A DNA stretch of 64,000 nucleotides, from positions 1,807 through 65,806 of the forward strand of contig JBPOHW010000003.1 in assembly GCA_052035095.1 (NCBI GenBank). Reading direction: 5' to 3'. Made by a program: the position numbers and the translations under genes. The notes beneath the pieces were generated by a model that was not told the DNA's origin, did not search any database, and saw only the letters and a program-made list of their open reading frames with translations. Shown in pieces: positions 1,592-21,617 of this stretch (position 1 is the stretch's first letter; each line of letters opens with the position of its first letter). This stretch comes from Candidatus Moraniibacteriota bacterium (lineage in GTDB: Bacteria > Patescibacteriota > Minisyncoccia > Moranbacterales > UBA1568).

Positions 1592-2254
1592 ATGTCATCT
1601 TTTTTTGAATTCCACTGCCACACGACTCCCTATTCGAAGGACGCCGGAGCAAAACTTGACGACATCATCAAAAGGTGTGAAAGGCGAAATATACGAAGCA
1701 TAGCGATTACCGATCACGACGAAATAGAAGGAGCGCTTCGATTAAAAAGTATAGCTCCTCCTTGGTTAAATGTCGTTCTTGGAGAAGAAATCAATACGTC
1801 TGCCGGAGAAATTATAGGCATATTCCTCAAAAAAAAGATTCCCCCCGGCCTTTCCCCGGAAGAAACACTTGCGGAGATAAAGAAGCAAGGAGGTATTTCC
1901 GTCGTCCCTCATCCATTCGACAGGTTTCGCTCAAAGGTTTTGAAAGCGTCCGAAATCAAAAAGAATGTTCATGCTATTGATATTATCGAAACTTTCAATG
2001 CGCGAAATCTATTGGAGGCAGATAATAAAAAGGCGGAGGAATTTGCGGAAATATACGAAAAACCCTGTATATGCGGGGGTGATGCTCACTTTATTGGAGA
2101 GTACGGGAGGACCGTCATCGCCAATATTGACTGTAGCGGACCGGAAACATTTCTCCGATCATTACATCGAGAAAATTTCAAACTTCGAAAATCTTCTCTT
2201 ACTTTCCATCTCCTGACAAAATACATGAAAATAGTCAGTTCTTTTCAAAAATAG
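1592..2254 (+). CDS. PHP-domain metal-dependent phosphoesterase
   Basis: N-terminal FEFHCHTTPYSKDAG...SIAITDHDEIEG is the PHP (polymerase/histidinol phosphatase) signature; gene sits 9 nt downstream of the UbiA gene. Confidence 0.7.
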   Translation: MSSFFEFHCHTTPYSKDAGAKLDDIIKRCERRNIRSIAITDHDEIEGALRLKSIAPPWLNVVLGEEINTSAGEIIGIFLKKKIPPGLSPEETLAEIKKQGGISVVPHPFDRFRSKVLKASEIKKNVHAIDIIETFNARNLLEADNKKAEEFAEIYEKPCICGGDAHFIGEYGRTVIANIDCSGPETFLRSLHRENFKLRKSSLTFHLLTKYMKIVSSFQK

Positions 2255-2256
2255 AT

Positions 2257-5199
2257 ATGCGAACAAAAATTTTTGCCACTACTCTCTTCTTTCTCATTTG
2301 TCTCTTTCCCGGAAGCAAGGCCGGATTTTTCGACGGTCTTCCGCCTTCAGCTCTGGAACTCATTATTACAGCCACAATACTCATAGGCATATTTGGAACG
2401 CCCTGGAACAAAAATGCCTTGATGCGAAAAGTAATCATCACCTCGCTTATTTTATTTCTCGCCGGTCAAACGATTTCAAAAACTTTTCTTCCTGTCGGAT
2501 GGAATGTCTGTATTCGTACATCTGCCGGCGCGCCACAAGGAAATTCAGCTTGTGAGCGATCAATCGAATTTCCACGAGGAAAAAAGAGTTTCATATATGA
2601 GACCATCGATTTCTCCAGAGAAAACTTTCCATTGTACTTTCTCAACGACACCTCTCGTTTCAATTTCTTGCGAGCAAACAATGAGCCCGATAGAGGTAAG
2701 CTTCCCTTTTCGATAGCCGCATCCACTTTTTTTCATGCCCAAGCAGATGACTCGCTTCTCATACAATCAGACAAAAATGTTCGCCTCGCAATAAACGATA
2801 CCACCATTCCTCTTGTCACCGACAAAGAAAATTTATTTCAAAAAATAGCACTCACACCGAATACGACCCATCATATTGAAATCATCTATGAGACAAATCG
2901 TAACAAGAAAAACATCCTCGTAGCCAAACTGCCTCGACCGTCATTTTTTACAATAGGAGATACCAAATCCATCCCACATACCGCATGGGCAACAATCTAC
3001 AAATTTGTAAACATATCCATTCTCATTCTTCTTGTTTTGACATTCGCTTGGGCGAAAAAACCGGATATACTCCTTCTCGGAAAATCACAAAAAATAACTC
3101 TCCTCATAGGGACACTTATTCTTATTTCTTTCTGGACACTTGTCACGCAAGATGTCATTGGATTCAAGGAAGCCCTTTTTCCGTTTTCAATATTCCTTAT
3201 TGGTTCTTCTCTTTTATTCGCTTCCTTGAAAAAATCATTAAAAAGAACACTTCTTCCGATCCTATTTCTCGCACTGTTTTTCAATTCATGCATATTTACA
3301 ACCACTCGAACATTTTCGGAAGAAGCGATTATTTTCGGCGGAGGGAATGATCCGATCGGACATGAATGGTATGCTCGCAGAGTATTTCTTTCGACAAGCC
3401 TTGAGGAATTCAGGGATTCCATTGGCTCTAGCGTCGACTACTATCAGCCGCTTCACCGCTATTTTCTCACTGTTTTCCACGTACTGGCCGGAGAGCCAAT
3501 GTGGGGACCATACGCACTTCAGACATTTCTTTTCAGCCTCGCCATTCTTTCACTCATTCTCGTTTTGTGGCAAACCAGCACTGTATCAGCGATTGTTTTT
3601 TCACTTGCCATGGCAGTCTTACTCACTTATGAGCCAACTTCTGCCTTGGAGGCCATCCTTTCTCCACTTCAACAAGCGATAGCGCTTCCTTTCATTATGT
3701 TTGCTTTCGCAATTCTTCTTTCTCTTCTGACACAAGAACAAGAAACGCGACAAGAAAAAAATATCCGGATGTTTTTTCTTTTGGGACTTTCCTTTGGGAC
3801 GGGTTCCATGATGCGAACCGATTGGCTTCCCGCCTTCTCGGGAATTCTTCTGGGAATATTCTTCATCCTTTTTCTTAATGGGAAATATCAGAAAAACATA
3901 TCGAACCAACCAACAGTAAAGCAAATCTTCTTCTCCAATATTATTTTCTACAAAAAAAGTCTTTTTCTTTTCTTCATCGGACTTTCTATTTTTCCATTCC
4001 TTATTGGTATGAAGAATTACATCTTCGCCGGACAGTTTTCATTCCTCCCTACAAGCGGTTTTGTCAATCTTCTCCCGGAAATCAAAGAAGCGGTCGACGA
4101 TAATATATCGTACTACGAAAATTCAACCGGAGTATTTCTTCAAGAAATTATACGCGGATTCTCCGGTCGATATGACGAACTCGCGGAAATTCTTCTCAAA
4201 AATGCGTATAAGGATATCATACGTCCGACCATTGTACGAATCGCTTTTTGGACTCTCTCGGTAATCGTCGTTCTTCTCTCCATTTTTCTTTTTTCGCATA
4301 TGCGCAAAACGCATTCGTTAGCATATATGAAACTCGGTAGCATCCTCTGTTCATTTCTCATACTAATTGGCATCGGATCATTTTTCGGACAACATAACGG
4401 TATTGCCATGATCGCCATATATGATATCCTTGTCGCGATCATTCTCGCTCTCAGCGCGCATATTATAGTGGATCGATTTGAAATCATGAAAAAACTCAAG
4501 CAAACCTATCGAAACAAATCAGACAGCCTTCAACAATATCTTCGCATAAACAGAGAGCTTTCCAAATTTCTCCTCTCGAGAATTCCACCTCATTCCGGAT
4601 TCTTGGATAGGATGAAAATAGCTTATCGCCCTTACATTTGTCCATTCTCCGATCTTCTCAATCTCCTTCCCAATCAATCTTCGATTTTCGACATCGGCTG
4701 TGGCAACGGCATGTTTCTCGCTCTCGTTTCAAAATTCAAGCTTCCAAAAGCAATAGGCGGTGTAGAGATATCAAAAAAACTCATCGATAACGCAATAACT
4801 ATTCTCGAGAATTCCAGCGTCGGAAAGAACGATCAGATCTCGATTCATACTTTTGACGGACAAACTATTCCTCATGAAATACGATCATATGAGTACATTT
4901 TCATGATTGATGTTCTCCATCACATCCCAAAGACAGCTCAAGTTGAATTTCTTAGAAAAGTTACTCATACTATGTCCGTCGGATCAAAGCTCATTCTAAA
5001 AGATATCGATGGAAGCCGTCCGTTTCTTTCAAAGTTCAACAAATTGCATGATCTCTTATTCTCGGGAGAGATCGGACACGAATTAAATCCGAAGTATGTC
5101 TTGCGAGAACTTATCCGTATGAATCTGAAGATTCACTTGATGCATAAAAAAAGAATATTTCTCTATCCTCACTACACCATCGTTTGCGAAAAAGTTTAA
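2257..5199 (+). CDS. Large polytopic membrane protein (putative GT-C-type glycosyltransferase) fused to a C-terminal class I SAM-dependent methyltransferase domain
   Basis: About 730 aa with many predicted TM helices and an early extracytoplasmic loop; C-terminal about 230 aa carries FDIGCGNGMFLAL...IFMIDVLHHIP...LILKDI methyltransferase motifs. Confidence 0.55.
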   Translation: MRTKIFATTLFFLICLFPGSKAGFFDGLPPSALELIITATILIGIFGTPWNKNALMRKVIITSLILFLAGQTISKTFLPVGWNVCIRTSAGAPQGNSACERSIEFPRGKKSFIYETIDFSRENFPLYFLNDTSRFNFLRANNEPDRGKLPFSIAASTFFHAQADDSLLIQSDKNVRLAINDTTIPLVTDKENLFQKIALTPNTTHHIEIIYETNRNKKNILVAKLPRPSFFTIGDTKSIPHTAWATIYKFVNISILILLVLTFAWAKKPDILLLGKSQKITLLIGTLILISFWTLVTQDVIGFKEALFPFSIFLIGSSLLFASLKKSLKRTLLPILFLALFFNSCIFTTTRTFSEEAIIFGGGNDPIGHEWYARRVFLSTSLEEFRDSIGSSVDYYQPLHRYFLTVFHVLAGEPMWGPYALQTFLFSLAILSLILVLWQTSTVSAIVFSLAMAVLLTYEPTSALEAILSPLQQAIALPFIMFAFAILLSLLTQEQETRQEKNIRMFFLLGLSFGTGSMMRTDWLPAFSGILLGIFFILFLNGKYQKNISNQPTVKQIFFSNIIFYKKSLFLFFIGLSIFPFLIGMKNYIFAGQFSFLPTSGFVNLLPEIKEAVDDNISYYENSTGVFLQEIIRGFSGRYDELAEILLKNAYKDIIRPTIVRIAFWTLSVIVVLLSIFLFSHMRKTHSLAYMKLGSILCSFLILIGIGSFFGQHNGIAMIAIYDILVAIILALSAHIIVDRFEIMKKLKQTYRNKSDSLQQYLRINRELSKFLLSRIPPHSGFLDRMKIAYRPYICPFSDLLNLLPNQSSIFDIGCGNGMFLALVSKFKLPKAIGGVEISKKLIDNAITILENSSVGKNDQISIHTFDGQTIPHEIRSYEYIFMIDVLHHIPKTAQVEFLRKVTHTMSVGSKLILKDIDGSRPFLSKFNKLHDLLFSGEIGHELNPKYVLRELIRMNLKIHLMHKKRIFLYPHYTIVCEKV

Positions 5200-5241: not shown

Positions 5242-6333
5242 ATGCGAAAAAATCACATTTCTTTTCTCGTTGATCCCGAAACATTCGAGCCTCTTTCACC
5301 TTCACACTCCTTCGAAGAAAATCTTAATCATATCACTTCTGGAATTCTCTCAAGTGAAAAAAATTGGTACCCGATCATAAACAGTATTCCGCGGCTCCTT
5401 GTGGGAAAACTCAAAATAAATCTCTTGCAAACACATCAGGGCTTCTTCAAACGATTTCACGCGGCACTTCCAAAAAATATCTCGGAAGAATGGCAAAAAG
5501 CGATAGACGCCATACCCGATCTCAACCGCTTTTGGAAACACCAGAAAAAAACCGCCGAGAGTTTCGCCTATGAATGGAAATATATCTACAAAGAAAACGA
5601 TTACGAGAAACAAAACTTCTTTCATTTCCTCTCACCCTTTGTTACGGAAAAGGATTTGAAAGGAAAAAAAACGCTCGATATCGGGTGCGGATCGGGGCGC
5701 TTCACCAAATGGTCGGCACTCTCCGGTGCGGAGATCGCCTTCGGGAGCGACTTGGGCGAAACCGTCGAGGTCGCCTACGAAATGACCAAGGGTCTGCCGA
5801 ATGCCTGTATCGTACAGGCGGATATCTATCATATGCCCTTCAAGGATACGTTCGACCTCGCCTACTCGATCGGTGTGCTCCATCATCTTCCCAAACCCCA
5901 AGAAGGATTCTCACGTCTTCCGAAAGTTTTAAAATCTAGCGGGCAAATGCTCATCTGGGTCTACAACCGCCGCCACAACGCCCGCGCCATCTATGTATAC
6001 GAACCACTCCGATCGATTCTCAAGAAACTTCCGAAGCCACTCCTCTTCAAGCTCTGCTATCTCCCCGGCGGCATTGTTCACAGCATCAACCTCTTCGGAA
6101 CGTTTCTGAAAAAAGTCGGGCTCGAGAAATTATCAGGAAAACTCCCCTTCTCGTACTATGCAAATTTCCCTTTTAATATGAAATTGAATGATGCTTTCGA
6201 CGTTCTTGCGACGCCAAAGAGCAACTACTACTATCGGGAAGCAGTCGAACAATGGTTCCGAAGCGCCAAGCTGAAAGATATCCGGGCATACGAACACCCG
6301 GAAGCGGGAATTACCTGTATCGGAACGCGATAA
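5242..6333 (+). CDS. Class I SAM-dependent methyltransferase
   Basis: LDIGCGSGRFTKW...IVQADIYHMPF...SIGVLHHLP motifs I/II/III; N-terminal Trm112-like FLVDPETFEPL segment. Confidence 0.7.
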   Translation: MRKNHISFLVDPETFEPLSPSHSFEENLNHITSGILSSEKNWYPIINSIPRLLVGKLKINLLQTHQGFFKRFHAALPKNISEEWQKAIDAIPDLNRFWKHQKKTAESFAYEWKYIYKENDYEKQNFFHFLSPFVTEKDLKGKKTLDIGCGSGRFTKWSALSGAEIAFGSDLGETVEVAYEMTKGLPNACIVQADIYHMPFKDTFDLAYSIGVLHHLPKPQEGFSRLPKVLKSSGQMLIWVYNRRHNARAIYVYEPLRSILKKLPKPLLFKLCYLPGGIVHSINLFGTFLKKVGLEKLSGKLPFSYYANFPFNMKLNDAFDVLATPKSNYYYREAVEQWFRSAKLKDIRAYEHPEAGITCIGTR

Positions 6334-6341
6334 CGTGCTCT

Positions 6342-7487
6342 ATGTCAAAGAAGAGAATACTCCACATCATTCAGTCACTCGGAAACGGCGGATGCGAAAA
6401 TATGCTGCTCCGCACCCTCCCCCTCCTTGCGGACGAATTCGAACACCACATCATCACCCTCCGCGAATTTGGCGAGCTCGCGCCACGATTTATTGAGAAA
6501 GGAATCTCCGTTACGACGATTCATCAAATCGGCTTTTTCGACATTTCGGGCTACCGGAGGCTCCTTCTGGAAACAAACCGGTTCAATCCCGACACCGTCA
6601 TCACGTACCTCTTCCATGCCGACATGATCGGACGATTTTTCTTGCAAAAGAAAATTTCTATCCCCATCATTCCCTTCCTTCGCACCACCTACAATCACCC
6701 GAGATATTTCATTGCGAGACTCTTCGAAAAAATTACTAAGCACCGTGTCAAACAGTACCTCGCCAATTCCGAAGCGGTCAAAGATTTCTACGTCAAAAAA
6801 ATCGGCGTCCAACCCGAGAAAATCACCGTCATCCCGAACGGCATCGACACCGAGTATTTCGACAGCATCCTCCCCAACCCAAATCTCCGCGCATCACCTG
6901 GTATCGCTCCTCACGACTTCGTCATTATCTGTGTCGCCAATTTTCATATCAACAAAGGTCACCGATACCTCCTCGAAGCCTTCGAGTCGCTCTTCCCGAA
7001 ATTCCGGCACGCAAAACTCCTCCTCATCGGCGATGGTTCCAAGCGAAAAAATCTTGAGCGACAAATCAACGCTTACCAAGCGAAACATTCCATTCTCTTC
7101 CTCGGACGCCGTACCGATGTCCCGCAACTCCTCAAGATTTCCGATTGTTTTGTTCTTCCCACACTCTTCGAAGGCATGAGTAATGCCCTGATTGAAGCGA
7201 TGGCCACCGGTCTCCCTGTTATCACAACCGATATTCCGGAAAATCGCGAGCTTATCGAACACGAAAAGACTGGCATTTTTGTCCAACCAAAAGATTCACA
7301 TGCGCTCACCAAGGCAATCGAACAACTCCTTGATAGTCCGGAAAAATGTGAAACCCTTGGAAAGAACGCTAAGTACGACATTCGAAGACGGTTTGACATA
7401 AATACTTCCATTTCAAAATTCAACAATTTTCTCAACTCTTTTATCGTACATAGAATGAAAAATGAGAAACCTTACAAAAAAAATTAA
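6342..7487 (+). CDS. Glycosyltransferase family 4 (GT-B)
   Basis: MSKKRILHIIQSLGNGG N-terminus and C-terminal FVLPTLFEGMSNALIEAMATGLPVITTD GT4 signature; start chosen at the internal ATG (ORF extends upstream to 6252 overlapping the previous gene). Confidence 0.8.
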   Translation: MSKKRILHIIQSLGNGGCENMLLRTLPLLADEFEHHIITLREFGELAPRFIEKGISVTTIHQIGFFDISGYRRLLLETNRFNPDTVITYLFHADMIGRFFLQKKISIPIIPFLRTTYNHPRYFIARLFEKITKHRVKQYLANSEAVKDFYVKKIGVQPEKITVIPNGIDTEYFDSILPNPNLRASPGIAPHDFVIICVANFHINKGHRYLLEAFESLFPKFRHAKLLLIGDGSKRKNLERQINAYQAKHSILFLGRRTDVPQLLKISDCFVLPTLFEGMSNALIEAMATGLPVITTDIPENRELIEHEKTGIFVQPKDSHALTKAIEQLLDSPEKCETLGKNAKYDIRRRFDINTSISKFNNFLNSFIVHRMKNEKPYKKN

Positions 7488-7506
7488 AATCAGTTTCTTT
7501 TTCCAT

Positions 7507-8565
7507 ATGAAAGACAAACCATCAATAAAGATAGTTCTCGAAAAAAGATCTGACGCAGTAGGTATCTACAATAATAAAATCTTATCTTACTTAAGAAAAA
7601 AACCAAACGTAGAATTTATTCTCCTTAATAATAAGCGTTTCAAAAAAAATATTCTCAATCGTATTTTTGAATTCTTCAACACACTAAAGATTATTTTTAC
7701 GATTGACCATAATGACATCGTTTTATTTACCGATCCCCTGCCATTCAATTTTTTGGCAAACTTATTTATAAAAAACAAAAAATTCGTCATTTTTTTTCAC
7801 TACGAACAAGATCCATCTTATTATAGATTTCTTCCTGCTATTTCTCTAAGCTCTGTCTTAAAAAAATCTGATGGAATCATATGCAGCTCTGCTTATTCAC
7901 TCTCCCAACTCCAACTCCTCAACATTGATCAAAGAAAATGCACCATCATCCATTGCGGAGTGGATCATAAAATATTTACTCCACCACTAACTAGAGAAAC
8001 TCTTTATCCTTTCGAGTATATTCTCAGCATAGGATCCGAAGAAAAGAGAAAAAACATGGAGAATATTCTTAAAACTCTCAAGATACTAAAAAGATATTTT
8101 CCTCACTTAAAACTCTTAAAAGTTGGGAAAGCAAGCTCAAGTAACCGAAAAAACACACTCTTTTGGGTAAAGAAGCTCAATCTAGACAATGATGTCGTTT
8201 TCACTGATTTCTTAGAAGAAAAGTCTCTACCAAAAATATATTCCAATTCAAGACTTCTTTTGTTTCCGTCCCTCCTCGAGGGCTTCGGTCTCCCGATTAT
8301 AGAAGCCATGGCATGTGGATGTCCGGTTGTAACATCCAATAGAAATCCCATGAAAGAGCTTGTTGGACCGGAACAACAGACCGTAGATCCACTCAATCCG
8401 AGTGACATCGCGGATACGTGTAAAAAAATTCTTTCGGATAAAAACTATCGAGATACCCTTATTCAAATCGGTATCAAGAGATCTGAAAAATTTGACTGGA
8501 AAAAAACAGCAAACGAAGTGTACTCATATTTAATAAAAAAGGATAAAAAGACAAAAGAACAATAA
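7507..8565 (+). CDS. Glycosyltransferase family 4 (GT-B)
   Basis: C-terminal LLLFPSLLEGFGLPIIEAMACGCPVVTSN motif; markedly AT-rich coding sequence; start ambiguous (7462 or 7507). Confidence 0.7.
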   Translation: MKDKPSIKIVLEKRSDAVGIYNNKILSYLRKKPNVEFILLNNKRFKKNILNRIFEFFNTLKIIFTIDHNDIVLFTDPLPFNFLANLFIKNKKFVIFFHYEQDPSYYRFLPAISLSSVLKKSDGIICSSAYSLSQLQLLNIDQRKCTIIHCGVDHKIFTPPLTRETLYPFEYILSIGSEEKRKNMENILKTLKILKRYFPHLKLLKVGKASSSNRKNTLFWVKKLNLDNDVVFTDFLEEKSLPKIYSNSRLLLFPSLLEGFGLPIIEAMACGCPVVTSNRNPMKELVGPEQQTVDPLNPSDIADTCKKILSDKNYRDTLIQIGIKRSEKFDWKKTANEVYSYLIKKDKKTKEQ

Positions 8566-8573
8566 ACGCCTTT

Positions 8574-9311
8574 TCACTTCTTGGCTACAGCCAAAAGACT
8601 TGAAGTGTATATATCTTGCTTATCGTACCCGAGAATTTGAATAAAAATTTTGAAGAAAAAAAGCGTAATTTTTCTCAATATATTCAACCAAAAATTCCCA
8701 ACTCCATAAAAGTTCTTCATCTCCACCCTTTTGAATCCCGCAACAACAAGTACTTGTCGCAAACTCAAGTTCGTAAAACCGATCTCATGAGTTATGTCTC
8801 CGTATCTGCCCGCGGTAGAATTAAAATAAGCAGCGCAATTTGGAACAACAATAATAATCGTGCCACCATCAACCAATCTATTTCTTACCTCTTCAAGAAA
8901 TCCAAAAAGATTTTCTTTTTTAATATGTTCCAATACATGTGACAAATATATGACATCAAACTTTTCTTTTTCGGAAAGAAGGTATTTATAAATATCAGCC
9001 TGAACAAACTTGTAAGATCTGAATAATTTTTTACACACGACTATTTCTTCTGTTGATATATCAACACCAGTAACATTCTTGTATCCGTGTGCTTGTAGAA
9101 AAAAAAGAAAACTTCCATAGCCACATCCCAGATCCAAAATAGCCCTTTCTTTGCTGATTTTTGTTTTAAACAGACGTCCCAGGTTATATTCCAACGGAAT
9201 TTTATTTTTCTTAAGCAGTGTCACTACCTGATTTTCATCGGAAAAATCCGTTTTTTCACAATTCGAGTAATGATTTGTAAGGTAGTTGTCGAATATTTTT
9301 CTATTGTCCAT
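8574..9311 (-). CDS. Class I SAM-dependent methyltransferase
   Basis: ILDLGCGYGSFLFFL...FDVIYLSHVLEHI...GGTIIIVVPN motifs. Confidence 0.7.
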   Translation of the reverse strand: MDNRKIFDNYLTNHYSNCEKTDFSDENQVVTLLKKNKIPLEYNLGRLFKTKISKERAILDLGCGYGSFLFFLQAHGYKNVTGVDISTEEIVVCKKLFRSYKFVQADIYKYLLSEKEKFDVIYLSHVLEHIKKENLFGFLEEVRNRLVDGGTIIIVVPNCAAYFNSTAGRYGDITHEIGFTNLSLRQVLVVAGFKRVEMKNFYGVGNFWLNILRKITLFFFKIFIQILGYDKQDIYTSSLLAVAKK

Positions 9312-11186: not shown

Positions 11187-12326
11187 TTATAGACCACTTT
11201 CTATATATACCCGGAAAACACACTCTTCGAGAGCAAACACCGTATGGGGAATATTCGCGGCGACCCATGCCGACTGACCATCATTCAGGTGAAACGTTTC
11301 CTTTTCCGATATCAACATGAGCGAACCCTTACTAATATATATATGCTTCATTGGCAGTTTTTTGATTCGAGCGACATCAGGGCAGTACTGATACTTACTG
11401 CTGTGACCTTTGGCAAGAATGTACTCCTTTCCTTCAGTCGATTTCGGAGCAGCGCTTCGTCCGACACGGAAATATTTTGGATACAAACCCCGTTTTATCA
11501 AAGAAGAATTGCTCAATCTATTATCATCGTCCCAGTTTGCAAACAGCTCTTCTTTAAGTCCACCCACAACGAAAGGGAGCAATTCCGAATCACAGTCAAA
11601 AAGTGACTTCTCCAAATTAAACGGGGTTGCGGGAGAATAGATAACAAATCGAATGCCTAAACTTGAAACTATTTTATTTAGAAAAAACCAAAAAGCTCTG
11701 TTTCTCGGATACATGAAAAAACAATTTTCCATAAACACTTGCAAAAGAAACGGCACTTTTACGAGAATTTTCCTTTCAATCTCCAAAAGTTTCTGAAAAT
11801 ACCGTTTCGTGCAAATGCCTGCCAATGAATACGGATAGAAGTGATTACTATTTTTCTTCAAAAAACTGGAATTTTTCCCGTCAAACTGAAAAAAGAAGAA
11901 GTGTTTCGAATAATCAGGGTACAGTCCCTCGGCGCTCCCAACGCTTAAACCGACATTGAAAAAAGAATACGTAAAACAATCGATTTTCGAATCCATCATA
12001 TCTTGAATGACGTCCCTGAAATGATCGAGAGATTTCAAAAGAAAATGATCCTCAAGAAAAACATAAACATACTCATATTTTGAATTCTCAAACATCTTTC
12101 TTGTGCTTTTCGCCCAATCATTCTCATTAAGACCAGAGAAAAAAATGCAGTTTCTTTCAACATTGTCAAAAGTCTCTTGAATATATTTCAGGACATCTCC
12201 GCGGTATTTTCCCCGAATATTGATGAGCCAGTTATCGGAAATGCCATACACCCGAGAGAAGGTTTCTTTGAACAACTCGAGCTTCGATTTCGAATGTATG
12301 AAAACATTACAGAGGGCGGTTATCAT
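11187..12326 (-). CDS. Hypothetical protein with C-terminal cupin-like domain (possible sugar isomerase/epimerase)
   Basis: C-terminal ...FHLNDGQSAWVAANIPHTVFALEECVFRVYIESGL resembles a cupin beta-barrel; N-terminal 250 aa unrecognised; sits between gmd and the C-methyltransferase. Confidence 0.35.
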   Translation of the reverse strand: MITALCNVFIHSKSKLELFKETFSRVYGISDNWLINIRGKYRGDVLKYIQETFDNVERNCIFFSGLNENDWAKSTRKMFENSKYEYVYVFLEDHFLLKSLDHFRDVIQDMMDSKIDCFTYSFFNVGLSVGSAEGLYPDYSKHFFFFQFDGKNSSFLKKNSNHFYPYSLAGICTKRYFQKLLEIERKILVKVPFLLQVFMENCFFMYPRNRAFWFFLNKIVSSLGIRFVIYSPATPFNLEKSLFDCDSELLPFVVGGLKEELFANWDDDNRLSNSSLIKRGLYPKYFRVGRSAAPKSTEGKEYILAKGHSSKYQYCPDVARIKKLPMKHIYISKGSLMLISEKETFHLNDGQSAWVAANIPHTVFALEECVFRVYIESGL

Positions 12327-12346: not shown

Positions 12347-13495
12347 CTATTCGAAAACAACTATCTTCGAATTGATTTTCTTGAGCTGTTTAAATATCTC
12401 ATCTCGGTAAATGCCAACCTTGAGGACAACGCCGACCACACCCTTCCCCTCCAACACTTCCGGACTTTGAACCATAAAGGGCGTCCCGTAGAGGCGCTTC
12501 CCTTGTTTGAGCGAAGAATTGTCCAACAGGGAAACTATTTTTTGTTTATTCAAACCAAATTCGAAAAGATACTGGGCAAAAATGTGAGCGCCAAAAACAT
12601 ATACCTCGCCATCAAAACCGGCAATTTTCTCATTCAAATCCTTCACCATATTCTGATGGTACCGAATAAAATCATCGAATATTTTTTTGTACTCATGATA
12701 TTGATTCTCAAAGATCGCAGCTCCCGATTGTTTAGCTTTCTCCGCGACATAGAAAATACTGTGATCCTTGTAAAAATACTTATCCTTTATGACAAACCCA
12801 TACTTAACAAAGAGATAATCAACAAAATAGTCCGTCAAGAACATCGTGTGCTCGAAATTTATGGCGTTCGTATACTTTCTCTCGAGCCACAGTTTCAAGT
12901 TTGGATAGGCGCACACAATCTTTCCTCCGACAGGAAGAAATTTCGCTATCGAAGAAACAAACGCGTTCGGATCATAGGCGTGTTCCATCACCTGCGAGAA
13001 AACTACCGTATCTATATTTCCCTCATACTCGAAATTTTCGTCAAAAAAAGCGCGGGCAATCTTAATCCGATCACTTCCCAAGTGAAGTGGATTTGGTTCA
13101 ACAAGTGTCCACGATGTCCCTTCAGTACTGCCAATAAAAATATCAGCGAGTTTCCCGGCGCCACCCCCAATTTCAAGAATATCTTTCGATGGTTGCCTTT
13201 GTACATACTCGGCAAAATCATGATAGTACTCTTCCCATGTTGGACCCGTGCCATCTACATGCTGTTCTTGATAAAGAATATCGAGTGGAATAAGTTTTTC
13301 GAGCTGAATGACGCCGGATTCCGGACATATTGCCCAGCTCATATCGGCTTTGACATCTTTTTCAGAGCTATGTTCCACGCACCCGAAAAACACCGGAAAG
13401 TCTTTAAAAGTGTGGAGATGCTTGAGATTTTCTTTTCCGGTGATAACACTTTTTTTTCTAAAAACATATTCCATACGCTTTTTTGGCTTGATCAT
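12347..13495 (-). CDS. NDP-hexose C-methyltransferase-like enzyme (zinc-ribbon + SAM methyltransferase + C-methyltransferase C-terminal domain architecture)
   Basis: ILEIGGGAGKLADIF SAM motif, TylCIII/TcaB9-like domain order with an N-terminal putative zinc-binding region and a long C-terminal domain. Confidence 0.6.
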   Translation of the reverse strand: MIKPKKRMEYVFRKKSVITGKENLKHLHTFKDFPVFFGCVEHSSEKDVKADMSWAICPESGVIQLEKLIPLDILYQEQHVDGTGPTWEEYYHDFAEYVQRQPSKDILEIGGGAGKLADIFIGSTEGTSWTLVEPNPLHLGSDRIKIARAFFDENFEYEGNIDTVVFSQVMEHAYDPNAFVSSIAKFLPVGGKIVCAYPNLKLWLERKYTNAINFEHTMFLTDYFVDYLFVKYGFVIKDKYFYKDHSIFYVAEKAKQSGAAIFENQYHEYKKIFDDFIRYHQNMVKDLNEKIAGFDGEVYVFGAHIFAQYLFEFGLNKQKIVSLLDNSSLKQGKRLYGTPFMVQSPEVLEGKGVVGVVLKVGIYRDEIFKQLKKINSKIVVFE

Positions 13496-14484
13496 CGTTT
13501 TATAAAACTCTTCACAAAAGCTTCAATAATTCCTTCGAACATTGAAATTAAGCGAATTTTTACAATATCTTTCGAATGCACATTATTTTTTCTGATATGC
13601 CTCTGTCCAAAAACGACGAGTCGACTCCCTGCTTGACGATCAAAATGACTCAAATATTCGTCACTTGAAACAATTTTCACATCAGTTTTTCCACATGAAC
13701 GCAAACGCCTTACAAATTCCCGAGTCGTCCATCCTCCATATGGCGCTGAATGAGACTCGAAATTGGTAATAAAGTATCCATACTTTGACGGAACTATCAC
13801 CGAATTAAAATAAGCATCAAGCAAAGAACCTCTCATTTCCGAAAATGCCCCGTTTGAAATCACAAGACCACCACTCCCCTGTCTAGGCGCCAAGGAGTTA
13901 ACACTTTCAAAGCGAGCCGAGTACCCAAAATGCAATAAAAAGCGTTTGATTATTCCATGAGAAGAGGGGAGGTCGTAAATATGCCATTTCTTGCCAAGAT
14001 CTGAATTAAAAAGAGTTACCGCTATATCATTGAAAATTTTACACTCACCACCGTACCCCGCGCCAATATCATGTATTTCTGTCTCACCGTTCAATATATT
14101 CTTTCCAAAAAGAGATAAGCAGTTGAAAGCATTGTTTGCATATCGAATAGTGGTCGGGGAAAGACTGTACCCTGCTTCATAAGGAGAATGGGCGTTAAAG
14201 TCAATCATATGTAAAGGCAACCCTACGGTATCGGAAGCTTGAATCAAAGGTAACGCCTTAAGAAAATCGGCTTCTTTTAATAAGCGTTTCAAATTCCATA
14301 ACCCGCACGATCGCGGAGATCCCTCGATAACTCGTCGAAACGGCTTCGAAGAACGAAAGATGCGATAAAACTCATCATTATTTGCTGCATCAGCACATGC
14401 CCGAACCCAATCGGATTCTTTTGCAGATACAGCATCATTCATATCAATTCGACAAATACTCGACCTCAAGTTATTCGTTTCCAT
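13492..14484 (-). CDS. Hypothetical protein, possible SAM-dependent (sugar O-) methyltransferase
   Basis: EIHDIGAGYGGECKIFNDI resembles SAM-binding motif I; otherwise unrecognised; start overlaps the upstream gene by 4 nt. Confidence 0.35.
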   Translation of the reverse strand: METNNLRSSICRIDMNDAVSAKESDWVRACADAANNDEFYRIFRSSKPFRRVIEGSPRSCGLWNLKRLLKEADFLKALPLIQASDTVGLPLHMIDFNAHSPYEAGYSLSPTTIRYANNAFNCLSLFGKNILNGETEIHDIGAGYGGECKIFNDIAVTLFNSDLGKKWHIYDLPSSHGIIKRFLLHFGYSARFESVNSLAPRQGSGGLVISNGAFSEMRGSLLDAYFNSVIVPSKYGYFITNFESHSAPYGGWTTREFVRRLRSCGKTDVKIVSSDEYLSHFDRQAGSRLVVFGQRHIRKNNVHSKDIVKIRLISMFEGIIEAFVKSFIKR

Positions 14485-14530: not shown

Positions 14531-15061
14531 TCATTTTTTCTTCCATGCTCCCGAGCCTTCTTTCAAGACAAGTGAGTAGATATCGAACGGTTCGTTGAAA
14601 AACTTTTCCAGTATATGCAAACACGCCTCAGCAACCGCCCCATCCCCACCTCGCAGGTTCGTGATAAAATCCGCCTTCTCTTTCGTTGCATAAAAAGCAT
14701 TGGCTGGAGCAATACTATAAGCAACGTGCTTAAAAACAAGTGGATCGAATATGCCGTCACCCATATAAATCGTTTCCGCCGGATCGAACCGATCGCGAAT
14801 CCACTCTATCCGCTCAAAAGTACTCACGAGGTCCAGTGGAAGCTTCATATCGTCGGCTATTCGTCGCTTCGTAATGGCAAAGCCGTTTTTATCACCGGTA
14901 ACCGCATGAATCATGAGTTTTCCCCGAAGAAGAGAAAGGGCGTCGTTATCTTCCGGACCGAACTTCTTCATGACTTTTCCATCGACGGTATAATAAAACG
15001 TACCGTCCGTGAAAACACCATCGACATCAAGAATGAAATTTTTTATTGTTTTCTTTTTCAT
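14531..15061 (-). CDS. HAD-IIIA phosphatase, KdsC-like (sugar-phosphate phosphatase)
   Basis: ILDVDGVFTDG...MGDGIFDPL...GGDGAVAEACLHIL matches the 3-deoxy-manno-octulosonate-8-phosphatase family. Confidence 0.7.
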   Translation of the reverse strand: MKKKTIKNFILDVDGVFTDGTFYYTVDGKVMKKFGPEDNDALSLLRGKLMIHAVTGDKNGFAITKRRIADDMKLPLDLVSTFERIEWIRDRFDPAETIYMGDGIFDPLVFKHVAYSIAPANAFYATKEKADFITNLRGGDGAVAEACLHILEKFFNEPFDIYSLVLKEGSGAWKKK

Positions 15062-15071
15062 ATCAACTGTT

Positions 15072-16646
15072 TTATTTTTCATTGAGCGCACGCCACAAGT
15101 TCAGCTTCCCGAAATAAAAGAGAAACAGATCGAACGGATGATGATGAAGTGGAGACATATTGAGCCAAATGATAGCCGTCAGAAGTTTCACCTTCCTTAC
15201 ATCATAGCCATTTTTCTCCAAAAATCCAAAGAGCACTTTTTGACATTGAACCAAATTTTCCTTGCGTAAAATATCACAAACAATCCTCTCCTTCCCAACA
15301 TCAATGACAAATAGATCATTGTTTACGATCTCATGATTCACTGTCAAATTGTGATTTAACTTCGAAAGATCGTAATACAAATCCCCCGATTTTAGAAGTC
15401 CGCCGAAATTTTGTCGCCAGTCCAAAAGCACATATCCAGATTTATTTTTCAAAAGATTATCAAGAATGAAATCGCCATGAAACCCGCTCTGCTTCGTATC
15501 ACATAGCCAATCAAAGTCAATCACTTCAAGCATTTTTTTAAAAGAAGGTATTTTTTCATCATTAATAACATTCTCCGCATCCTTCACTTTGCGCGAATTG
15601 AGAAACTTTTCAACTCGCTCCACTGTTTTTGTACGATAAAAATCAAAACAAATTTTCTTGAATTCCCGATCCGAAATTTCCCGATTCGGCTTCCAGAGAT
15701 TTTTCTGTGACCAATTCAGAAATCTCCCAAAGTCTATCGGGGTGGCGACTTTTGAATACAGTTTTCCGGTCGCATATTTATAACGATAAAAATTTTTGGT
15801 CGACCCTTGTATTTCCGGCACAAGACCGCGCAAAATTTTGGCCCTCGATACTCGTTGCGCCACCATCTTTTCATCATTGAAAAATTTAACCACAAAACTG
15901 TCAAAAATAAATATTGATTCATCTGATTTATCAAGAATTCGAAATGAGTCCTCAATTTCTTCCCGAGCCCTGTTTAAACTTTCGACATTACCAATATCGT
16001 ACCACTTTTCAAATTCAACCACTCCAAACTCGCTTCCGTCTCCTATCATTTTGCTGATTACCTCGACATCATTAAGTCCGCCATTATTCGGATCTTGTTC
16101 ATACAACTCCCTCAAGTTTTTCCAAAAGAGTTTATATTCTTGCACTCCTATCAAACCGATATGCAAAAAATCCGGATCCATCATTCCTTTGTCATACATT
16201 TGTTGCACTTTTCCGTCGACGACATCAAATGAAGCGTAGTGAGAAGATCCCTCACCCTGAAATCCTCCTATCCAATTTGACTTCGGCAAAGGAATTTTTC
16301 TCCCAGCAACAATCGTGTCACAAGCATGATAAATAAATGGGCATTGTAATTGGGAAGATGCTTGCAACATGGAATATCCAAGACTTGTTCCCGGGCCCTC
16401 ATATTTGTCCACTTCGACAAATTTGAAATTTCTTTCCGGATAAACCAGTTTCAAAAAATCACACACTTGATCACCAAAATAACCCACAGTTATAACAAAC
16501 TCCGTATTCTTCGGATACTGCTCAATGATATAAGAAATAGCCGGCTTCTTTCCGACTTTCACAAGAGACTTGTTCGTATACTTGGTTATTTCTCCCAATC
16601 GTGATCCTGTTCCGGACGTGGTAAGAAGGACCTTACAGGCAGCCAT
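15072..16646 (-). CDS. Bifunctional sugar-phosphate nucleotidyltransferase (N-terminal) / APH-ChoK-family kinase (C-terminal)
   Basis: N-terminus VLLTTSGTGSRLGEITKYTNKSLVKVG is a nucleotidyltransferase G-loop; C-terminus HGDFILDNLL...LLDWRQNFGG is the Brenner kinase motif; LicC/LicA-like order. Confidence 0.6.
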   Translation of the reverse strand: MAACKVLLTTSGTGSRLGEITKYTNKSLVKVGKKPAISYIIEQYPKNTEFVITVGYFGDQVCDFLKLVYPERNFKFVEVDKYEGPGTSLGYSMLQASSQLQCPFIYHACDTIVAGRKIPLPKSNWIGGFQGEGSSHYASFDVVDGKVQQMYDKGMMDPDFLHIGLIGVQEYKLFWKNLRELYEQDPNNGGLNDVEVISKMIGDGSEFGVVEFEKWYDIGNVESLNRAREEIEDSFRILDKSDESIFIFDSFVVKFFNDEKMVAQRVSRAKILRGLVPEIQGSTKNFYRYKYATGKLYSKVATPIDFGRFLNWSQKNLWKPNREISDREFKKICFDFYRTKTVERVEKFLNSRKVKDAENVINDEKIPSFKKMLEVIDFDWLCDTKQSGFHGDFILDNLLKNKSGYVLLDWRQNFGGLLKSGDLYYDLSKLNHNLTVNHEIVNNDLFVIDVGKERIVCDILRKENLVQCQKVLFGFLEKNGYDVRKVKLLTAIIWLNMSPLHHHPFDLFLFYFGKLNLWRALNEK

Positions 16647-16649
16647 AAT

Positions 16650-17366
16650 TTAGACAGCTCTCATTTTTTGAATAACCGAAACTGACCGATCAATGTTTCC
16701 TCGAAACTCTCTGATTTTTTCATCAAGCGGTTTTTCTTTTTTGTAGATAACCGACGTGCCGCATACCAACACAGTTGCCCCGGCAGCTATCATGAGCGGA
16801 CCGCTTTCCGGAGTCACCCCGCCGTCAATTTCGATTTCGATATCACTCTTTCCCAATGCATCCAGCTTCTTTCGGAGATCCATAATCTTCTGCACGGAAA
16901 AAGGAACTAGCTTGTGTCCGACAATTCCCGGATTGATAGCCATGAGCATTACAACGTCGATGTCATCCAATATGTAGTCAAGCACAGAGAGTGGAGTCGC
17001 CAGGTTAAGCGCCACCCCTGGTTTTACTCCCTCGTTTTTTATAAGAGAAACCGCGCGATGGAGATGATTGGTAGCCTCCGCATGTACAACAACATACGTT
17101 GCCCCAGCCTTTGCAAACTCCGTGACATACTTCTCTGGAGAACGCGTCATCATGTGCACATCAATAGGAAGACTTGTCACTGATCGAATATCCCGGAGCA
17201 GTTCAGGGTAAAGACCGTATCGAGGAACAAAGTCCCCATCCATGACATCAAAATGAATCGAATCAATACCACCCTTTTCAAGAAGACGAATTTCCTCCGC
17301 AAAAGTCATAGCATTCCCACAGATGAATGACGCTGATAACTTGTAGCTTCTTGTCATGGCTTCCAT
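16650..17366 (-). CDS. rpe: Ribulose-phosphate 3-epimerase family
   Basis: KLSASFICGN...IHFDVMDGDFVP...MAINPGIVG...IDGGV motifs. Confidence 0.8.
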   Translation of the reverse strand: MEAMTRSYKLSASFICGNAMTFAEEIRLLEKGGIDSIHFDVMDGDFVPRYGLYPELLRDIRSVTSLPIDVHMMTRSPEKYVTEFAKAGATYVVVHAEATNHLHRAVSLIKNEGVKPGVALNLATPLSVLDYILDDIDVVMLMAINPGIVGHKLVPFSVQKIMDLRKKLDALGKSDIEIEIDGGVTPESGPLMIAAGATVLVCGTSVIYKKEKPLDEKIREFRGNIDRSVSVIQKMRAV

Positions 17367-17372
17367 AGTTTT

Positions 17373-17900
17373 TTATTCAAGGTTGGAGTGTCGAGCCCAC
17401 ATTGTCTCATGAGTTTCCTCGAGAAGATCCATGAGCACCAATACAAGCGCGTCATAAAAAATAAAAAGACACTGTTCGTTCAGCGTCGTCATTGGTTGAA
17501 CGGAAGAAAATCCTTCCACTGGCTTGGTCTTTGAGGGAGCCTTGATTTCAACTATCGTATCAGCAAGTTTTCCCATCCTCGATTCCGGATTTCCGGTCAC
17601 AAGCGCGACTCTTGCCCCATTTTTCTTGGCAATTTCAACAAGATCATAAATGGTTTGGGTCTCACCGGATCCGGAACTCACCAAGAAGAGATCTCCAGAA
17701 CCGATAGACGGAACCACCGAATCGCCAAGCGTAAACGCATCCCGCCCAAGATGTTTCAATCGCATGCCAAATGATCGCGTCGCCATCCCTACTCTCCCCG
17801 CTCCGCACACCACAATCTTTTTCGCTCGTATAATGTCCGCAATGAGACCAATTACTTGTTCCTCCTGCAGTGACTCAAGCACTACTTTCATTTCACTCAT
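17373..17900 (-). CDS. hxlB: 6-phospho-3-hexuloisomerase (SIS domain)
   Basis: VVCGAGRVGMATRSFGMRL...LVSSGSGETQ...VQPMTTLNEQCLFIFYDALVLVLM...HSNLE closely parallels HxlB/PHI rather than GmhA. Confidence 0.65.
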   Translation of the reverse strand: MSEMKVVLESLQEEQVIGLIADIIRAKKIVVCGAGRVGMATRSFGMRLKHLGRDAFTLGDSVVPSIGSGDLFLVSSGSGETQTIYDLVEIAKKNGARVALVTGNPESRMGKLADTIVEIKAPSKTKPVEGFSSVQPMTTLNEQCLFIFYDALVLVLMDLLEETHETMWARHSNLE

Positions 17901-17982
17901 TATCACCTGTATTCTTCTCTTTATCATAGTAATTACGGCATTACAACAAGAAAAATTCATCCAGAAAACATCCTCTACTAGA

Positions 17983-19329
17983 TTATACTAACACTTTTCT
18001 TTCACTGTCAAAAATAGACATCCTTGCAAGAAGCCATCGTTCGACAAATATCGAGACAGCCGTATTGGCAATAAACATATACACAATAGCAAGAATACTC
18101 ACATTTCCGAAAAAAATAAGCAGTCCATATCCGGCTATGTGTGTAAAATTAATGATATTGGAGATGAGAACATATTTTTTGTAGAGTTTCTTTGAAAGCG
18201 CCATAATCGTCGACCAATAAACCGTGAGAATAATCTGAGCCGTCGCCAACAATCCAAAACTCGCAATGTATCTCATATCGTATCCGTATCGACTGCCAAA
18301 GAGTAACATCACTATATATATGATAGAACTCAATACAAAAAAGACGGGAACAGCTCCAAAAAGAAACAATCGGTCGAGCTTCCGAACGAAATCTTTGTCA
18401 GAAACCTTTGATATAAAGGGAAAATAGACATTCACAAAGATCTGTGTCGCTTGCGCGACAAGATTGGTCGAAGCGGTGAAATACGCCATATAAACTCCCA
18501 GTTCCTGTATGCTCAAATATTTTACAATAATAAATTTATCAAGAGAGCTAAACACTATCCCAAGAGCGGAGCTAAGAATAATAATCCAAGCGTATGAAAG
18601 TCCTTTTTTCAAAATATTGAAACGAAACTTTGAAAAATATCGTCGGAAAAACCACACCCCACAGAGAATAAAACCGATATACCCTCCGCAAAGAACAAAA
18701 AAATAAGACACGTAAGAAACTTTTTTCAAAAAAAAGAAGGCTACAAAAAACAAACAAATGATCAAAAAAACCTCCGCCATTCTCGAAAAAAATTGCTCTC
18801 GGAAAAAAGAGAGGCCTCGAAAAAATACGTCCGAAACCGATCGCGCTATCACGATAACGGAATACGTGGCAGCTACCAAAAAGAATATCAAATCAACATG
18901 GGAACGATTACTGATAAATGGAGCAATCATCAAAAAAAATACAATGACGGCAGTAGTTGAAAAACCAACGAAAACAGCTATCGTTGTCATACTTTCCGAT
19001 CGAGCTTCTCCTGTCTCATCTTTTGAGAGAAGTTGAAGCCCCGCAGTATCCATGCCAAAAAGCGCAAGGAGTATAAGTATTTGACTTACCGCAAGCACCA
19101 ATCCGTAAAGACCATACTGTTCTGGCCCCATAAAGCGCCCTCCAACCACATTTACAAAAAGCATAACGAGAGACGCTATAATACCTCCAAAAAACGACCA
19201 TGATAAATAGCCGAGAAACTTTCGCATCTCTCCACTCATCGGGTGTCCAAAAAACCGGAGATGGACAACCTCGATCATTCGAAAGAATTTCTTCTCCGCC
19301 ACCCCGAAAGACATAAGGCGATCAATCAA
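17983..19329 (-). CDS. Wzx-like polysaccharide/oligosaccharide flippase (MOP superfamily)
   Basis: 448 aa, about 12-14 TM helices, architecture of polysaccharide biosynthesis (Wzx) proteins; next to glycosyltransferases. Confidence 0.6.
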   Translation of the reverse strand: MIDRLMSFGVAEKKFFRMIEVVHLRFFGHPMSGEMRKFLGYLSWSFFGGIIASLVMLFVNVVGGRFMGPEQYGLYGLVLAVSQILILLALFGMDTAGLQLLSKDETGEARSESMTTIAVFVGFSTTAVIVFFLMIAPFISNRSHVDLIFFLVAATYSVIVIARSVSDVFFRGLSFFREQFFSRMAEVFLIICLFFVAFFFLKKVSYVSYFFVLCGGYIGFILCGVWFFRRYFSKFRFNILKKGLSYAWIIILSSALGIVFSSLDKFIIVKYLSIQELGVYMAYFTASTNLVAQATQIFVNVYFPFISKVSDKDFVRKLDRLFLFGAVPVFFVLSSIIYIVMLLFGSRYGYDMRYIASFGLLATAQIILTVYWSTIMALSKKLYKKYVLISNIINFTHIAGYGLLIFFGNVSILAIVYMFIANTAVSIFVERWLLARMSIFDSERKVLV

Positions 19330-20928: not shown

Positions 20929-21617
20929 AAAAACCTTCATCCAAAATATTTTTCCTCACAAGCACCGCCGTATTCACCGTGCTTGTTGCATGGAATCTCT
21001 CTCGAGAGTGGGGATTTCCGGATACCTCGTTTCCCATTGAGAAAAGCGAGAAGATAAAGCTGGACGAATCGGGCGCCACACAGACATTTCGCGCCTCAAG
21101 AAATAACCTCTCGGGCGTGAGCGTCCTCTTCGGCGGCTCGAGTATCAAAAACGGCGGGACGCTCTCGCTCGCACTCCTCGATGAAACCTGCAGAGAAACA
21201 CTCCGCGAAGAAAAACGATTCATCACGGAGCTCAATGCCGATAACTCGATTGAGTTTCACTTTTCCCGCATTCCCGATTCCGCAGGGAAAATTTTCTGCT
21301 TCAAAACAAGCTTCGCTCCCGAAAAAGGCTCGAAAAAATCGTCTCTCTTTGCCATCCCCAACGCCCTGCCAAATGAAAAGCTTTCTCTCACCATAAACGG
21401 CGAGAATCGCCCTGGAGAATCACTCGCTCTCCGTCCGGTATACCGAAATGAAAGCTTTTTTGCCGATCTCGCCGAACTCAACCGGCGAATTTCCCAGTAC
21501 AAGCCGTGGTTCCTGAAAGACGCGTTTCTCGCCACGATCACGATTCTTTCCATCGGGCTCTCCTATGCCTTTCTTTTCTTCATCACCCATCCAGAAGAGA
21601 CTGATTCAAAAGAATAG
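20925..21617 (+). CDS. Hypothetical membrane-anchored protein (N- and C-terminal TM helices)
   Basis: ATGA overlap with the upstream GT-C gene suggests co-translation; no recognisable domain. Confidence 0.4.
   Translation: MKKPSSKIFFLTSTAVFTVLVAWNLSREWGFPDTSFPIEKSEKIKLDESGATQTFRASRNNLSGVSVLFGGSSIKNGGTLSLALLDETCRETLREEKRFITELNADNSIEFHFSRIPDSAGKIFCFKTSFAPEKGSKKSSLFAIPNALPNEKLSLTINGENRPGESLALRPVYRNESFFADLAELNRRISQYKPWFLKDAFLATITILSIGLSYAFLFFITHPEETDSKE

Follow-up and report, generated by a model that had tools for sequence, protein, structure and literature searches.

In the periplasm of Citrobacter youngae O1/O2, a three-component system attaches alpha-linked pentofuranose side chains, as was shown experimentally (Kelly et al., PNAS 2024; PMC11127046). 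The components are ORF15 (PPPRS-PRP), which joins a UbiA-type synthase to a HAD phosphatase domain, the MATE flippase ORF14, and the GT-C glycosyltransferase ORF12, the founding member of GT136, with 11 transmembrane (TM) helices, a beta-rich carbohydrate-binding module (CBM) at the C-terminus and, after TM1, a small helical domain in the periplasm. Epimerases turn ribose into xylose or arabinose on the lipid, and their presence or absence sets the sugar (PMC11127046). Here we describe a related module in a stretch of 64,000 nt from Candidatus Moraniibacteriota bacterium (GenBank assembly GCA_052035095.1, contig JBPOHW010000003.1, positions 1,807–65,806; hereafter the window, with positions counted from its first letter). 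Its central gene, at 2257–5199, encodes a GT-C-like membrane protein that continues into an S-adenosylmethionine (SAM)-dependent methyltransferase, and genes for a UbiA-family synthase and a PHP-family phosphoesterase lie directly upstream. Because of these two upstream genes and the GT-C family of the membrane part, the module is a variant of the three-component system published for pentofuranose side chains.

An older relative is the mycobacterial decaprenyl-phospho-arabinose pathway, which comprises the UbiA-type DPPRS Rv3806c, the phosphatase Rv3807c, DprE1/DprE2, Rv3789 and the GT-C enzymes Aft/Emb. SAM-dependent methylation of a polyprenyl-linked saccharide at the cytoplasmic face, before export, is carried out by AglP of Haloferax volcanii. 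The same kind of reaction is known for WbdD of Escherichia coli O9a (PMC11127046). The likeness of these two enzymes to the present system would lie in this reaction: their substrate is a lipid-linked oligo- or polysaccharide and not a polyprenyl-monophosphate monosaccharide, and they are unfused to a GT-C. The methylthioxylose (MTX) capping of lipoarabinomannan in Mycobacterium tuberculosis would share with the present system a modified pentofuranose, a polyprenyl-phosphate donor and a GT-C outside the cytoplasm (PMC11127046, ref. 56). The MTX donor derives from 5′-methylthioadenosine and not from phosphoribosyl pyrophosphate (PRPP), and no SAM methyltransferase methylates the lipid-linked sugar there (PMC11127046).

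The fusion gene and its homologues

The open reading frame (ORF) at 2257–5199 is a real, conserved fusion of a GT-C-like membrane domain with a methyltransferase, in one unbroken frame that encodes 980 aa (Table 1). Its ATG lies 3 nt past the stop codon of the PHP gene, and the start codon was called correctly, since M1, K4 and I5 are invariant among the aligned homologues. An initial annotation of this stretch had described one ORF running from about 730 TM-rich residues into a class I methyltransferase. The 980-aa frame and its Pfam matches bear this out, and the translation contains both motifs cited there, FDIGCGNGMFLAL and IDVLHHIP. Hydropathy and the AlphaFold model place about 16 hydrophobic helices in the first ~740 residues, but residues ~82–224 form a beta-rich soluble PA14-like domain, and the TM-rich description stands only for the rest. 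The DNA around the junction (4420–4660) reads as normal coding sequence; it has a single A6 run and neither a stop nor an obvious frameshift signature. The first ~790 residues had no Pfam or NCBIfam match, and NCBIfam gave only weak generic methyltransferase similarities for the ORF.

A search of 5.8 billion proteins returned four other full-length fused proteins (66, 45, 45 and 45% identity); a fifth, P0036 (27% identity), came from an exhaustive profile search. They come from different samples and assemblies and differ in linker length, so the architecture is not unique to this assembly. Three unfused relatives (734–750 aa) were also found in the protein search. The locus of one Bdellovibrionales metagenome-assembled genome (L007) has the order GtrA, UbiA, PHP, 736-aa membrane protein, 226-aa methyltransferase, 363-aa methyltransferase and GT4; it is collinear with the window except that the GT-C and the methyltransferase are separate genes with a 41-nt overlap. 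This standalone methyltransferase, directly downstream of the unfused GT-C, shares 53% identity with the C-terminal domain in the window, and another, directly upstream of the membrane gene in locus L003, shares 51%. The fusion ties a normally separate partner enzyme to the transferase. In a neighbour-joining tree of the membrane domain (no bootstrap), fused and unfused proteins were interleaved and P0036 fell in a distant clade. This interleaving indicated that fusion or fission happened more than once. Literature searches found no characterised GT-C::methyltransferase fusion and no precedent for an O-methyl-ribofuranose pathway, in line with the initial remark that the architecture was unrecognised.

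The C-terminal domain is, to judge from its sequence, a class I (Rossmann-fold) SAM-dependent methyltransferase. Four Pfam models matched residues 797–957 above their cut-offs: Methyltransf_23 (37.9 bits, cut-off 27), Methyltransf_12 (35.5, cut-off 30), Methyltransf_25 (34.1, cut-off 27) and Methyltransf_11 (30.6, cut-off 21.2). Foldseek matched class I methyltransferases, PhzM, ChlM and BelI among others (prob 1.00), with a model of only moderate predicted local distance difference test (pLDDT) values in this domain. The SAM-binding motif I, DIGCGNG (G814, C815, G816 and G818), is invariant across 28 relatives, and the domain keeps 17 of the 17 residues invariant among them, GCGxG included. 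Its N-terminus carries a family-specific R.Y.CPF segment.

The membrane domain and its topology

The membrane domain is supported at the family level as a divergent GT-C, a view based on sequence profiles and in agreement with the initial description of this part as GT-C-like. In an hhalign comparison, the core family matched PA14- and PMT_2-bearing proteins with probability 100 and E = 3.9e-62 over 556 columns. PMT_2 (PF13231) was matched by 7 of 32 core members (best E = 2e-6) and was the sole recurring Pfam family there; in distant homologues it scored above the gathering score over the region aligned to the core. Searches of the PDB by sequence and with three profiles matched PA14 domains and no GT-C.

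The AlphaFold (AF2) model was built from a 54-sequence alignment (mean pLDDT 85.7, predicted TM-score (pTM) 0.83, membrane part mostly >90). It contains 16 long helices, broken by the beta-rich domain at residues 82–224 and by the loops 350–415 and 592–658. The N-terminal helices carry a PGSKAG motif that is invariant across eight close homologues. For the beta-rich insert, the family profile matched the PA14 domain of anthrax protective antigen (E = 1.4e-5), and distant homologues have a Pfam PA14 match above threshold at the same place. The pair C85/C99 within the insert was conserved in 46 of 54 sequences. Four residues of the core (D365, R374, R520 and N587) were invariant in all 54. D365 sits in a periplasmic loop after a TM helix, with the invariant arginines at the periplasmic interface, and may be catalytic by analogy with other GT-C enzymes, among them ORF12 with its D31 (PMC11127046).

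For the topology, the model helices were taken as TM segments with the N-terminus inside, and K+R were counted in the short loops. The window protein has 16 such residues on the cytoplasmic side and 2 on the periplasmic side; the family means are 10.7 and 2.6, and the same bias was seen in 45 of 45 core members. In this model, the PA14-like domain and two loops (592–658 and the one with D365) are periplasmic, and the methyltransferase is cytoplasmic together with its K/R-rich linker. The linker (residues 741–775) contains 9 K+R and is where indels occur among the fused homologues in alignment A1. SAM is available in the cytoplasm. The positive-inside rule applied to the AlphaFold helices answers the initial annotation's question about the side of the methyltransferase domain, and it turns against its proposal that glycosyl transfer and O-methylation of the same envelope glycan are physically coupled. 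With the two catalytic parts on opposite faces of the membrane, joint action on the same glycan would be impossible, and coupling would be sequential across the membrane, most likely via a lipid-linked sugar donor. Two proteins active on opposite membrane faces would here be linked by fusion, a clean case of the Rosetta-stone type.

Table 1. Positions of the features in the 64-kb window on which the analysis draws.
Feature	Position	Strand	Basis or remarks
UbiA-family polyprenyl-phosphate 5-phosphoribosyltransferase (PPPRS/DPPRS homologue), 302 aa	675–1583	+	NF008977, Pfam UbiA
PHP-family phosphoesterase, 220 aa, soluble	1592–2254	+	Pfam PHP and PHP_C above threshold
Fusion gene, PA14-GT-C::SAM-methyltransferase, 980 aa	2257–5199	+	ORF list, Pfam, homologues, AlphaFold model
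N-terminal three TM helices, aa 1–77	2257–2487	+	AF2 helices 2–16, 32–47, 54–77
PA14-like beta-sandwich insert, aa 82–224, predicted periplasmic	2500–2928	+	Family profile, AF2 model beta-rich
Predicted GT-C core, aa 326–740: ten TM helices and periplasmic loops aa 350–415, 592–658	3232–4476	+	hhalign, PMT_2
Codon of D365, candidate catalytic Asp, GGxD...HE motif in the first periplasmic core loop	3349–3351	+	Invariance, analogy
Predicted cytoplasmic linker helix, aa 743–774, K/R-rich	4483–4578	+	AF2 helix, 32 residues
Predicted class I SAM-dependent methyltransferase domain, aa 765–980	4549–5196	+	Pfam, Foldseek, standalone homologues
Second methyltransferase, 363 aa, conserved downstream partner	5242–6333	+	Pfam Methyltransf_11
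Second, conventional GT-C, 483 aa	19477–20928	+	PMT_2 38.7 bits, PMT 30.4 bits; adjoins Wzx-type flippase (17983–19329)
tRNA genes, four	41085–41157 (−), 42713–42799 (−), 43383–43455 (+), 54616–54687 (+)		Rfam

The UbiA/PHP module and the methyltransferase subfamily

The genes for the UbiA phosphoribosyltransferase and the PHP phosphatase upstream of the fusion are the decisive context that the initial annotation lacked. The UbiA protein matched the NCBIfam model NF008977, decaprenyl-phosphate phosphoribosyltransferase, with 281.9 bits (cut-off 234), and the same model was the best for UbiA in seven related loci. The synthase and GT-C genes are adjacent and co-oriented in the window and in loci L001, L003, L004, L007, L011 and L012, with UbiA conserved directly upstream of the GT-C in L001, L003, L004, L007 and L012. 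A PHP gene stands between the two in five loci (the window, L001, L003, L004 and L007); L011 and L012 have the order methyltransferase, UbiA, membrane gene, without PHP. The module in L001 contains an inserted PRPP synthetase gene, and in L003 an SDR epimerase gene is divergent from UbiA. The distant Candidate Phyla Radiation homologues L005 and L006 had no adjacent UbiA or PHP genes, which restricts the inference of a ribose donor to the closer subfamily.

With the METHYLTRANSFERASE domain alone as the query, more than 227 relatives were found. The 120 listed were all of standalone size (~212–252 aa), with 40–63% identity; Flavobacterium, Bacteroidota, Nitrospira and Shapirobacteria are among their source labels. 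Five contexts were examined: Flavobacterium (L013, CP109998.1), Nitrospira, two metagenome contigs and an NCBI assembly. Each of the five had UbiA and a HAD phosphatase, which holds the slot of PHP, within one or two genes of the methyltransferase. The best match of these UbiA proteins was the phosphoribosyltransferase model or its HAD-fused variant, and in the Nitrospira locus UbiA and HAD form one fused protein, like Citrobacter ORF15. The subfamily was also matched in L011 (E = 1.6e-13), L012 (8.5e-10) and the fused domain of P0036 (6.6e-23), and the other methyltransferases of the window reached only 1e-5 to 4e-4. The pentofuranose pathway seems to have in this methyltransferase a fourth component, widespread and so far undescribed.

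The large neighbouring protein in the five contexts was a plain PMT_2 protein in one and a protein of 528–585 aa without a Pfam match in four (L013 7642–9273, L015 5302–7011, L016 4254–6011 and L017 8098–9684). Two of these, from L013 and L015, were tested as members of the present GT-C family and were unrelated (hhalign probability <1), with no NCBIfam match either. The four proteins are candidate transferases of another type, possibly GT136-like. In L015 (9111–10949) and L016 (8112–9956), next after the UbiA-HAD pair comes a protein of ~612 aa that matches Pfam GT_STM0557_N.

Comparison with described pathways

The Citrobacter system and the module in the window share a UbiA-type phosphoribosyltransferase and a position in a surface-glycan locus and, as predicted for the window, a 5-phosphatase and a GT-C that faces the periplasm with an extra domain of carbohydrate-binding type. 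They differ in that the putative phosphatase here is a separate PHP protein and not a HAD PRP domain, and in that no MATE gene is adjacent here. The GT-C was set apart from GT136 by the architecture of ORF12 as described in PMC11127046: 11 TM helices and a C-terminal CBM, in contrast to the ~16 TM helices, the PA14 insert after TM3, the predicted cytoplasmic C-terminal methyltransferase and the PMT_2 relationship found here. A methyltransferase partner, PHP and PA14 are not mentioned in that paper.

With the mycobacterial pathway, the module shares the first committed step, as seen in the NF008977 match, and a lipid-linked pentofuranose donor used by a GT-C outside the cytoplasm. GtrA-like genes adjoin the module in the related loci L004 and L007, and Emb and AftD carry CBM-type domains. 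The differences are a PHP in place of a PAP2-type phosphatase, the methyltransferase partner and another GT-C family. Arabinofuranose would call for the DprE1/DprE2 pair, and xylofuranose for an epimerase of the ORF13 type. Neither DprE1/DprE2, nor FAD_binding_4/ALO, nor an adjacent SDR epimerase was found among the scanned ORFs of the 64-kb window, which were all but a few of the shorter ones. The arabinose reading was rejected as DprE1/DprE2 were not found among these ORFs, and with no epimerase there the sugar would most simply be ribofuranose. Epimerase genes could lie elsewhere in the genome.

The likeness to GT-C enzymes of the ArnT/PMT type (PF13231, PMT_2) consists of homology between family profiles, a polytopic structure, a periplasmic loop with an invariant acidic residue, and an expected polyprenyl-phosphate-monosaccharide donor. 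The protein in the window differs from them by its divergence, which is too great for a PMT_2 match, by the extra N-terminal module of six helices and PA14, and by the C-terminal methyltransferase, predicted to be cytoplasmic.

Proposed function and alternative explanations

On balance we lean towards reading the fusion, with a slightly better than even chance, as a bifunctional inner-membrane enzyme of polyprenyl-phosphate-pentofuranose glycan decoration, in which the methyltransferase modifies the donor and the GT-C transfers it. In this scheme, UbiA would move ribose-5-phosphate from PRPP onto polyprenyl phosphate, giving polyprenyl-P-ribose-5-P, a step supported by the model scores and the gene context. 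The PHP phosphoesterase would then strip the 5-phosphate to leave polyprenyl-P-ribofuranose at the cytoplasmic face. Before flipping, the methyltransferase domain would O-methylate the lipid-linked ribofuranose with SAM, and a putative flippase would bring the methylated donor across the membrane. There the GT-C (D365, R374, R520 and N587) would move the sugar onto the surface glycan of the surrounding locus, as its homology and predicted topology support. The PA14-like insert is a candidate module for binding the acceptor glycan and may hold it during transfer. Since the constant partner of the methyltransferase is the UbiA and phosphatase pair that would make polyprenyl-P-ribofuranose, O-methylation of the donor is the most economical reading. 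UbiA lay within three genes of this methyltransferase subfamily in 11 of 12 loci, whatever the GT-C type, a count that is not fully independent because L015 and L016 look like related loci, which weighs against the reading.

Several further points weigh against donor methylation and the scheme around it. The evidence for the methylation step consists of gene association and topology only, and the role of the PHP protein as polyprenyl-P-ribose-5-phosphate 5-phosphatase is inferred from its gene position only. A dedicated flippase adjoining the module is absent in the window: no MATE or GtrA gene occurred among the scanned ORFs, and the only candidate is the Wzx-type Polysacc_synt gene, 13 kb away. 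The window sequence alone had no Pfam PA14 match, and the protein had no PMT_2 match even at E ≤ 1. P0036 carries the fusion in a locus where a GT2 gene lies upstream and UbiA is absent within 10 kb; what the subfamily follows may be the GT-C, or lipid-linked monosaccharides in general, rather than ribose as such. In L001 the UbiA-PHP-GT-C module is present but no orthologous methyltransferase adjoins it, so the methyltransferase is optional. At least three other methyltransferases in the locus make methylation of the acceptor glycan plausible as well. A 206-aa methyltransferase in L001, 8 kb from the module, was considered as the orthologue and was not clearly one (E = 7.6e-7).

The first alternative, which we consider unlikely, is that the methyltransferase acts on the acceptor glycan and not on the donor, and that the fusion merely co-localises two enzymes of one pathway. 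The substrate could be, for example, a repeat unit linked to undecaprenyl diphosphate (Und-PP) or the non-reducing end of a polymer at the cytoplasmic face, methylated as a decoration or as a chain-terminating cap, and the periplasmic GT-C step, which would come later, would attach a pentofuranose without a methyl group. Genes for methyltransferases and glycosyltransferases abound in the locus, and its glycan is probably methylated at several sites; P0036 is fused and has no nearby UbiA; and cytoplasmic methylation of lipid-linked glycans has precedents in AglP and in WbdD, the latter cited in PMC11127046. Yet UbiA and the phosphatase are constant in the Flavobacterium, Nitrospira and metagenome loci, whereas the remaining locus and the GT-C type vary, and such tight tracking of donor-synthesis genes would be unexpected for an acceptor-specific enzyme.

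A bolder form of the donor reading, in which the methyltransferase subfamily methylates the lipid-linked donor and the fused, unusually large 16-TM GT-C, in a locus without an adjacent flippase, takes it straight from the cytoplasmic leaflet and shares in its translocation, seems rather doubtful to us.

It is also improbable that the methyltransferase acts elsewhere in donor synthesis (on polyprenyl-P-ribose-5-P before dephosphorylation, on the phosphate group or on the polyprenyl lipid), on another small molecule, or as a non-catalytic SAM-binding regulator or scaffold for the GT-C or UbiA. Small-molecule and isoprenoid methyltransferases, those of farnesyl and geranyl pyrophosphate (FPP, GPP) included, are its nearest relatives of solved structure, and other relatives are labelled as polyprenyl-benzoquinol methylase or cyclopropane-fatty-acyl-phospholipid synthase-like, but the likeness is non-specific, with low identity to the solved enzymes, and the source names are generic automated labels. 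The conserved SAM-binding and family-invariant residues argue against a degenerate domain, and methylation of the lipid tail has no supporting evidence.

We regard it as very unlikely that the membrane domain merely resembles a GT-C and has some other polytopic role in glycan assembly, for example as a polymerase, ligase or flippase. This idea draws on the lack of a direct Pfam match in the membrane part of the window protein, on the failure of sequence profiles to reach a solved GT-C, and on the N-terminal six helices and PA14, which are absent from the GT-C enzymes described in the cited literature. It is opposed by the PMT_2 matches within the core family and the hhalign alignment to PMT_2-bearing proteins, by the invariant Asp and Arg at the periplasmic side, and by the linkage to a polyprenyl-P-sugar synthase gene, which fits published GT-C systems (PMC11127046). 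Finally, the possibility raised initially, that an assembly or sequencing error (a missed frameshift or stop) merged two adjacent genes, is effectively refuted: a single indel would fuse genes that overlap as in L007, and the A6 run lies close to the junction, but five other fused proteins of 66–27% identity from independent assemblies have differing linkers, and the linker is a predicted helix continuous with the last TM helix.

The surrounding glycan locus and the rest of the window

The surrounding 21 kb form a surface-glycan locus that encodes GT4, GT2, GDP-mannose dehydratase, three further methyltransferases, the Wzx-type flippase and a second PMT_2 GT-C. Four SAM methyltransferases lie within 14 kb, namely the fused domain and the genes at 5242–6333, 8574–9311 (−) and 12347–13495 (−), which suggests a heavily methylated glycan. 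The 363-aa methyltransferase shares 70% identity with its same-position counterpart in L007, compared with 39% for the adjacent GT-C, and a 363-aa methyltransferase is also found in L012. The GC content is 0.49–0.50 over ~5500–7250, compared with ~0.40 to the left and 0.31–0.33 over 7250–9000. The region 5242–7487 looks like part of a mosaic locus with recently exchanged segments.

At the left end, an ORF of 136 aa (232–642) matched only the C-terminal third of asparagine synthase (profile positions 225–354 of 354) and has an in-frame stop upstream; it may be what is left of an AsnB-like amidotransferase after truncation or a frameshift. In L004 and L012, full-length genes of the AsnB-like type lie at the flanks of the module. 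On the other side, 15072–17960 (−) encodes a ribulose-phosphate 3-epimerase, a SIS-domain protein and a protein of 524 aa whose NTP_transferase match is faint. This block recurs beside the module in L003 (11386–15138), and the SIS gene is also present in L005. It may represent a pentose-phosphate-derived activated-sugar pathway that co-occurs with the GT-C. Four proteins encoded within the glycan locus, of 379, 330, 186 and 230 aa, had no Pfam match at E ≤ 1e-4 (11187–12326, 13492–14484 and 14531–15091 on the minus strand, and 20925–21617 on the plus strand).

The rest of the window is chromosomal housekeeping sequence, and its right half has genes for LexA, an RseP-like M50 protease, RRF, RecG, sigma-70, ValRS and TsaD. 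Rfam at the gathering threshold detected no family other than tRNA in the window.

Implications

It was not until 2024 that the extracytoplasmic pentofuranose pathway was defined, as one of three components, and the window and its relatives point to three unreported variations on it. The first is a PA14-bearing, PMT_2-related GT-C family as the transferase, and the second is a PHP-type phosphatase that would replace the HAD or PAP2 enzymes. The third and most useful is a methyltransferase subfamily that accompanies the UbiA synthase in distant phyla and in some cases forms one protein with the GT-C. If the donor is indeed methylated, it would be the first polyprenyl-monophosphate sugar known to be tailored in this way, a prediction for which a suitable reagent exists in synthetic farnesyl-P-ribofuranose (PMC11127046). 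O-methyl-pentofuranose would then be predicted on surface glycans of, for example, Flavobacterium and Nitrospira, and the pathway would provide a new route to antigen diversification.

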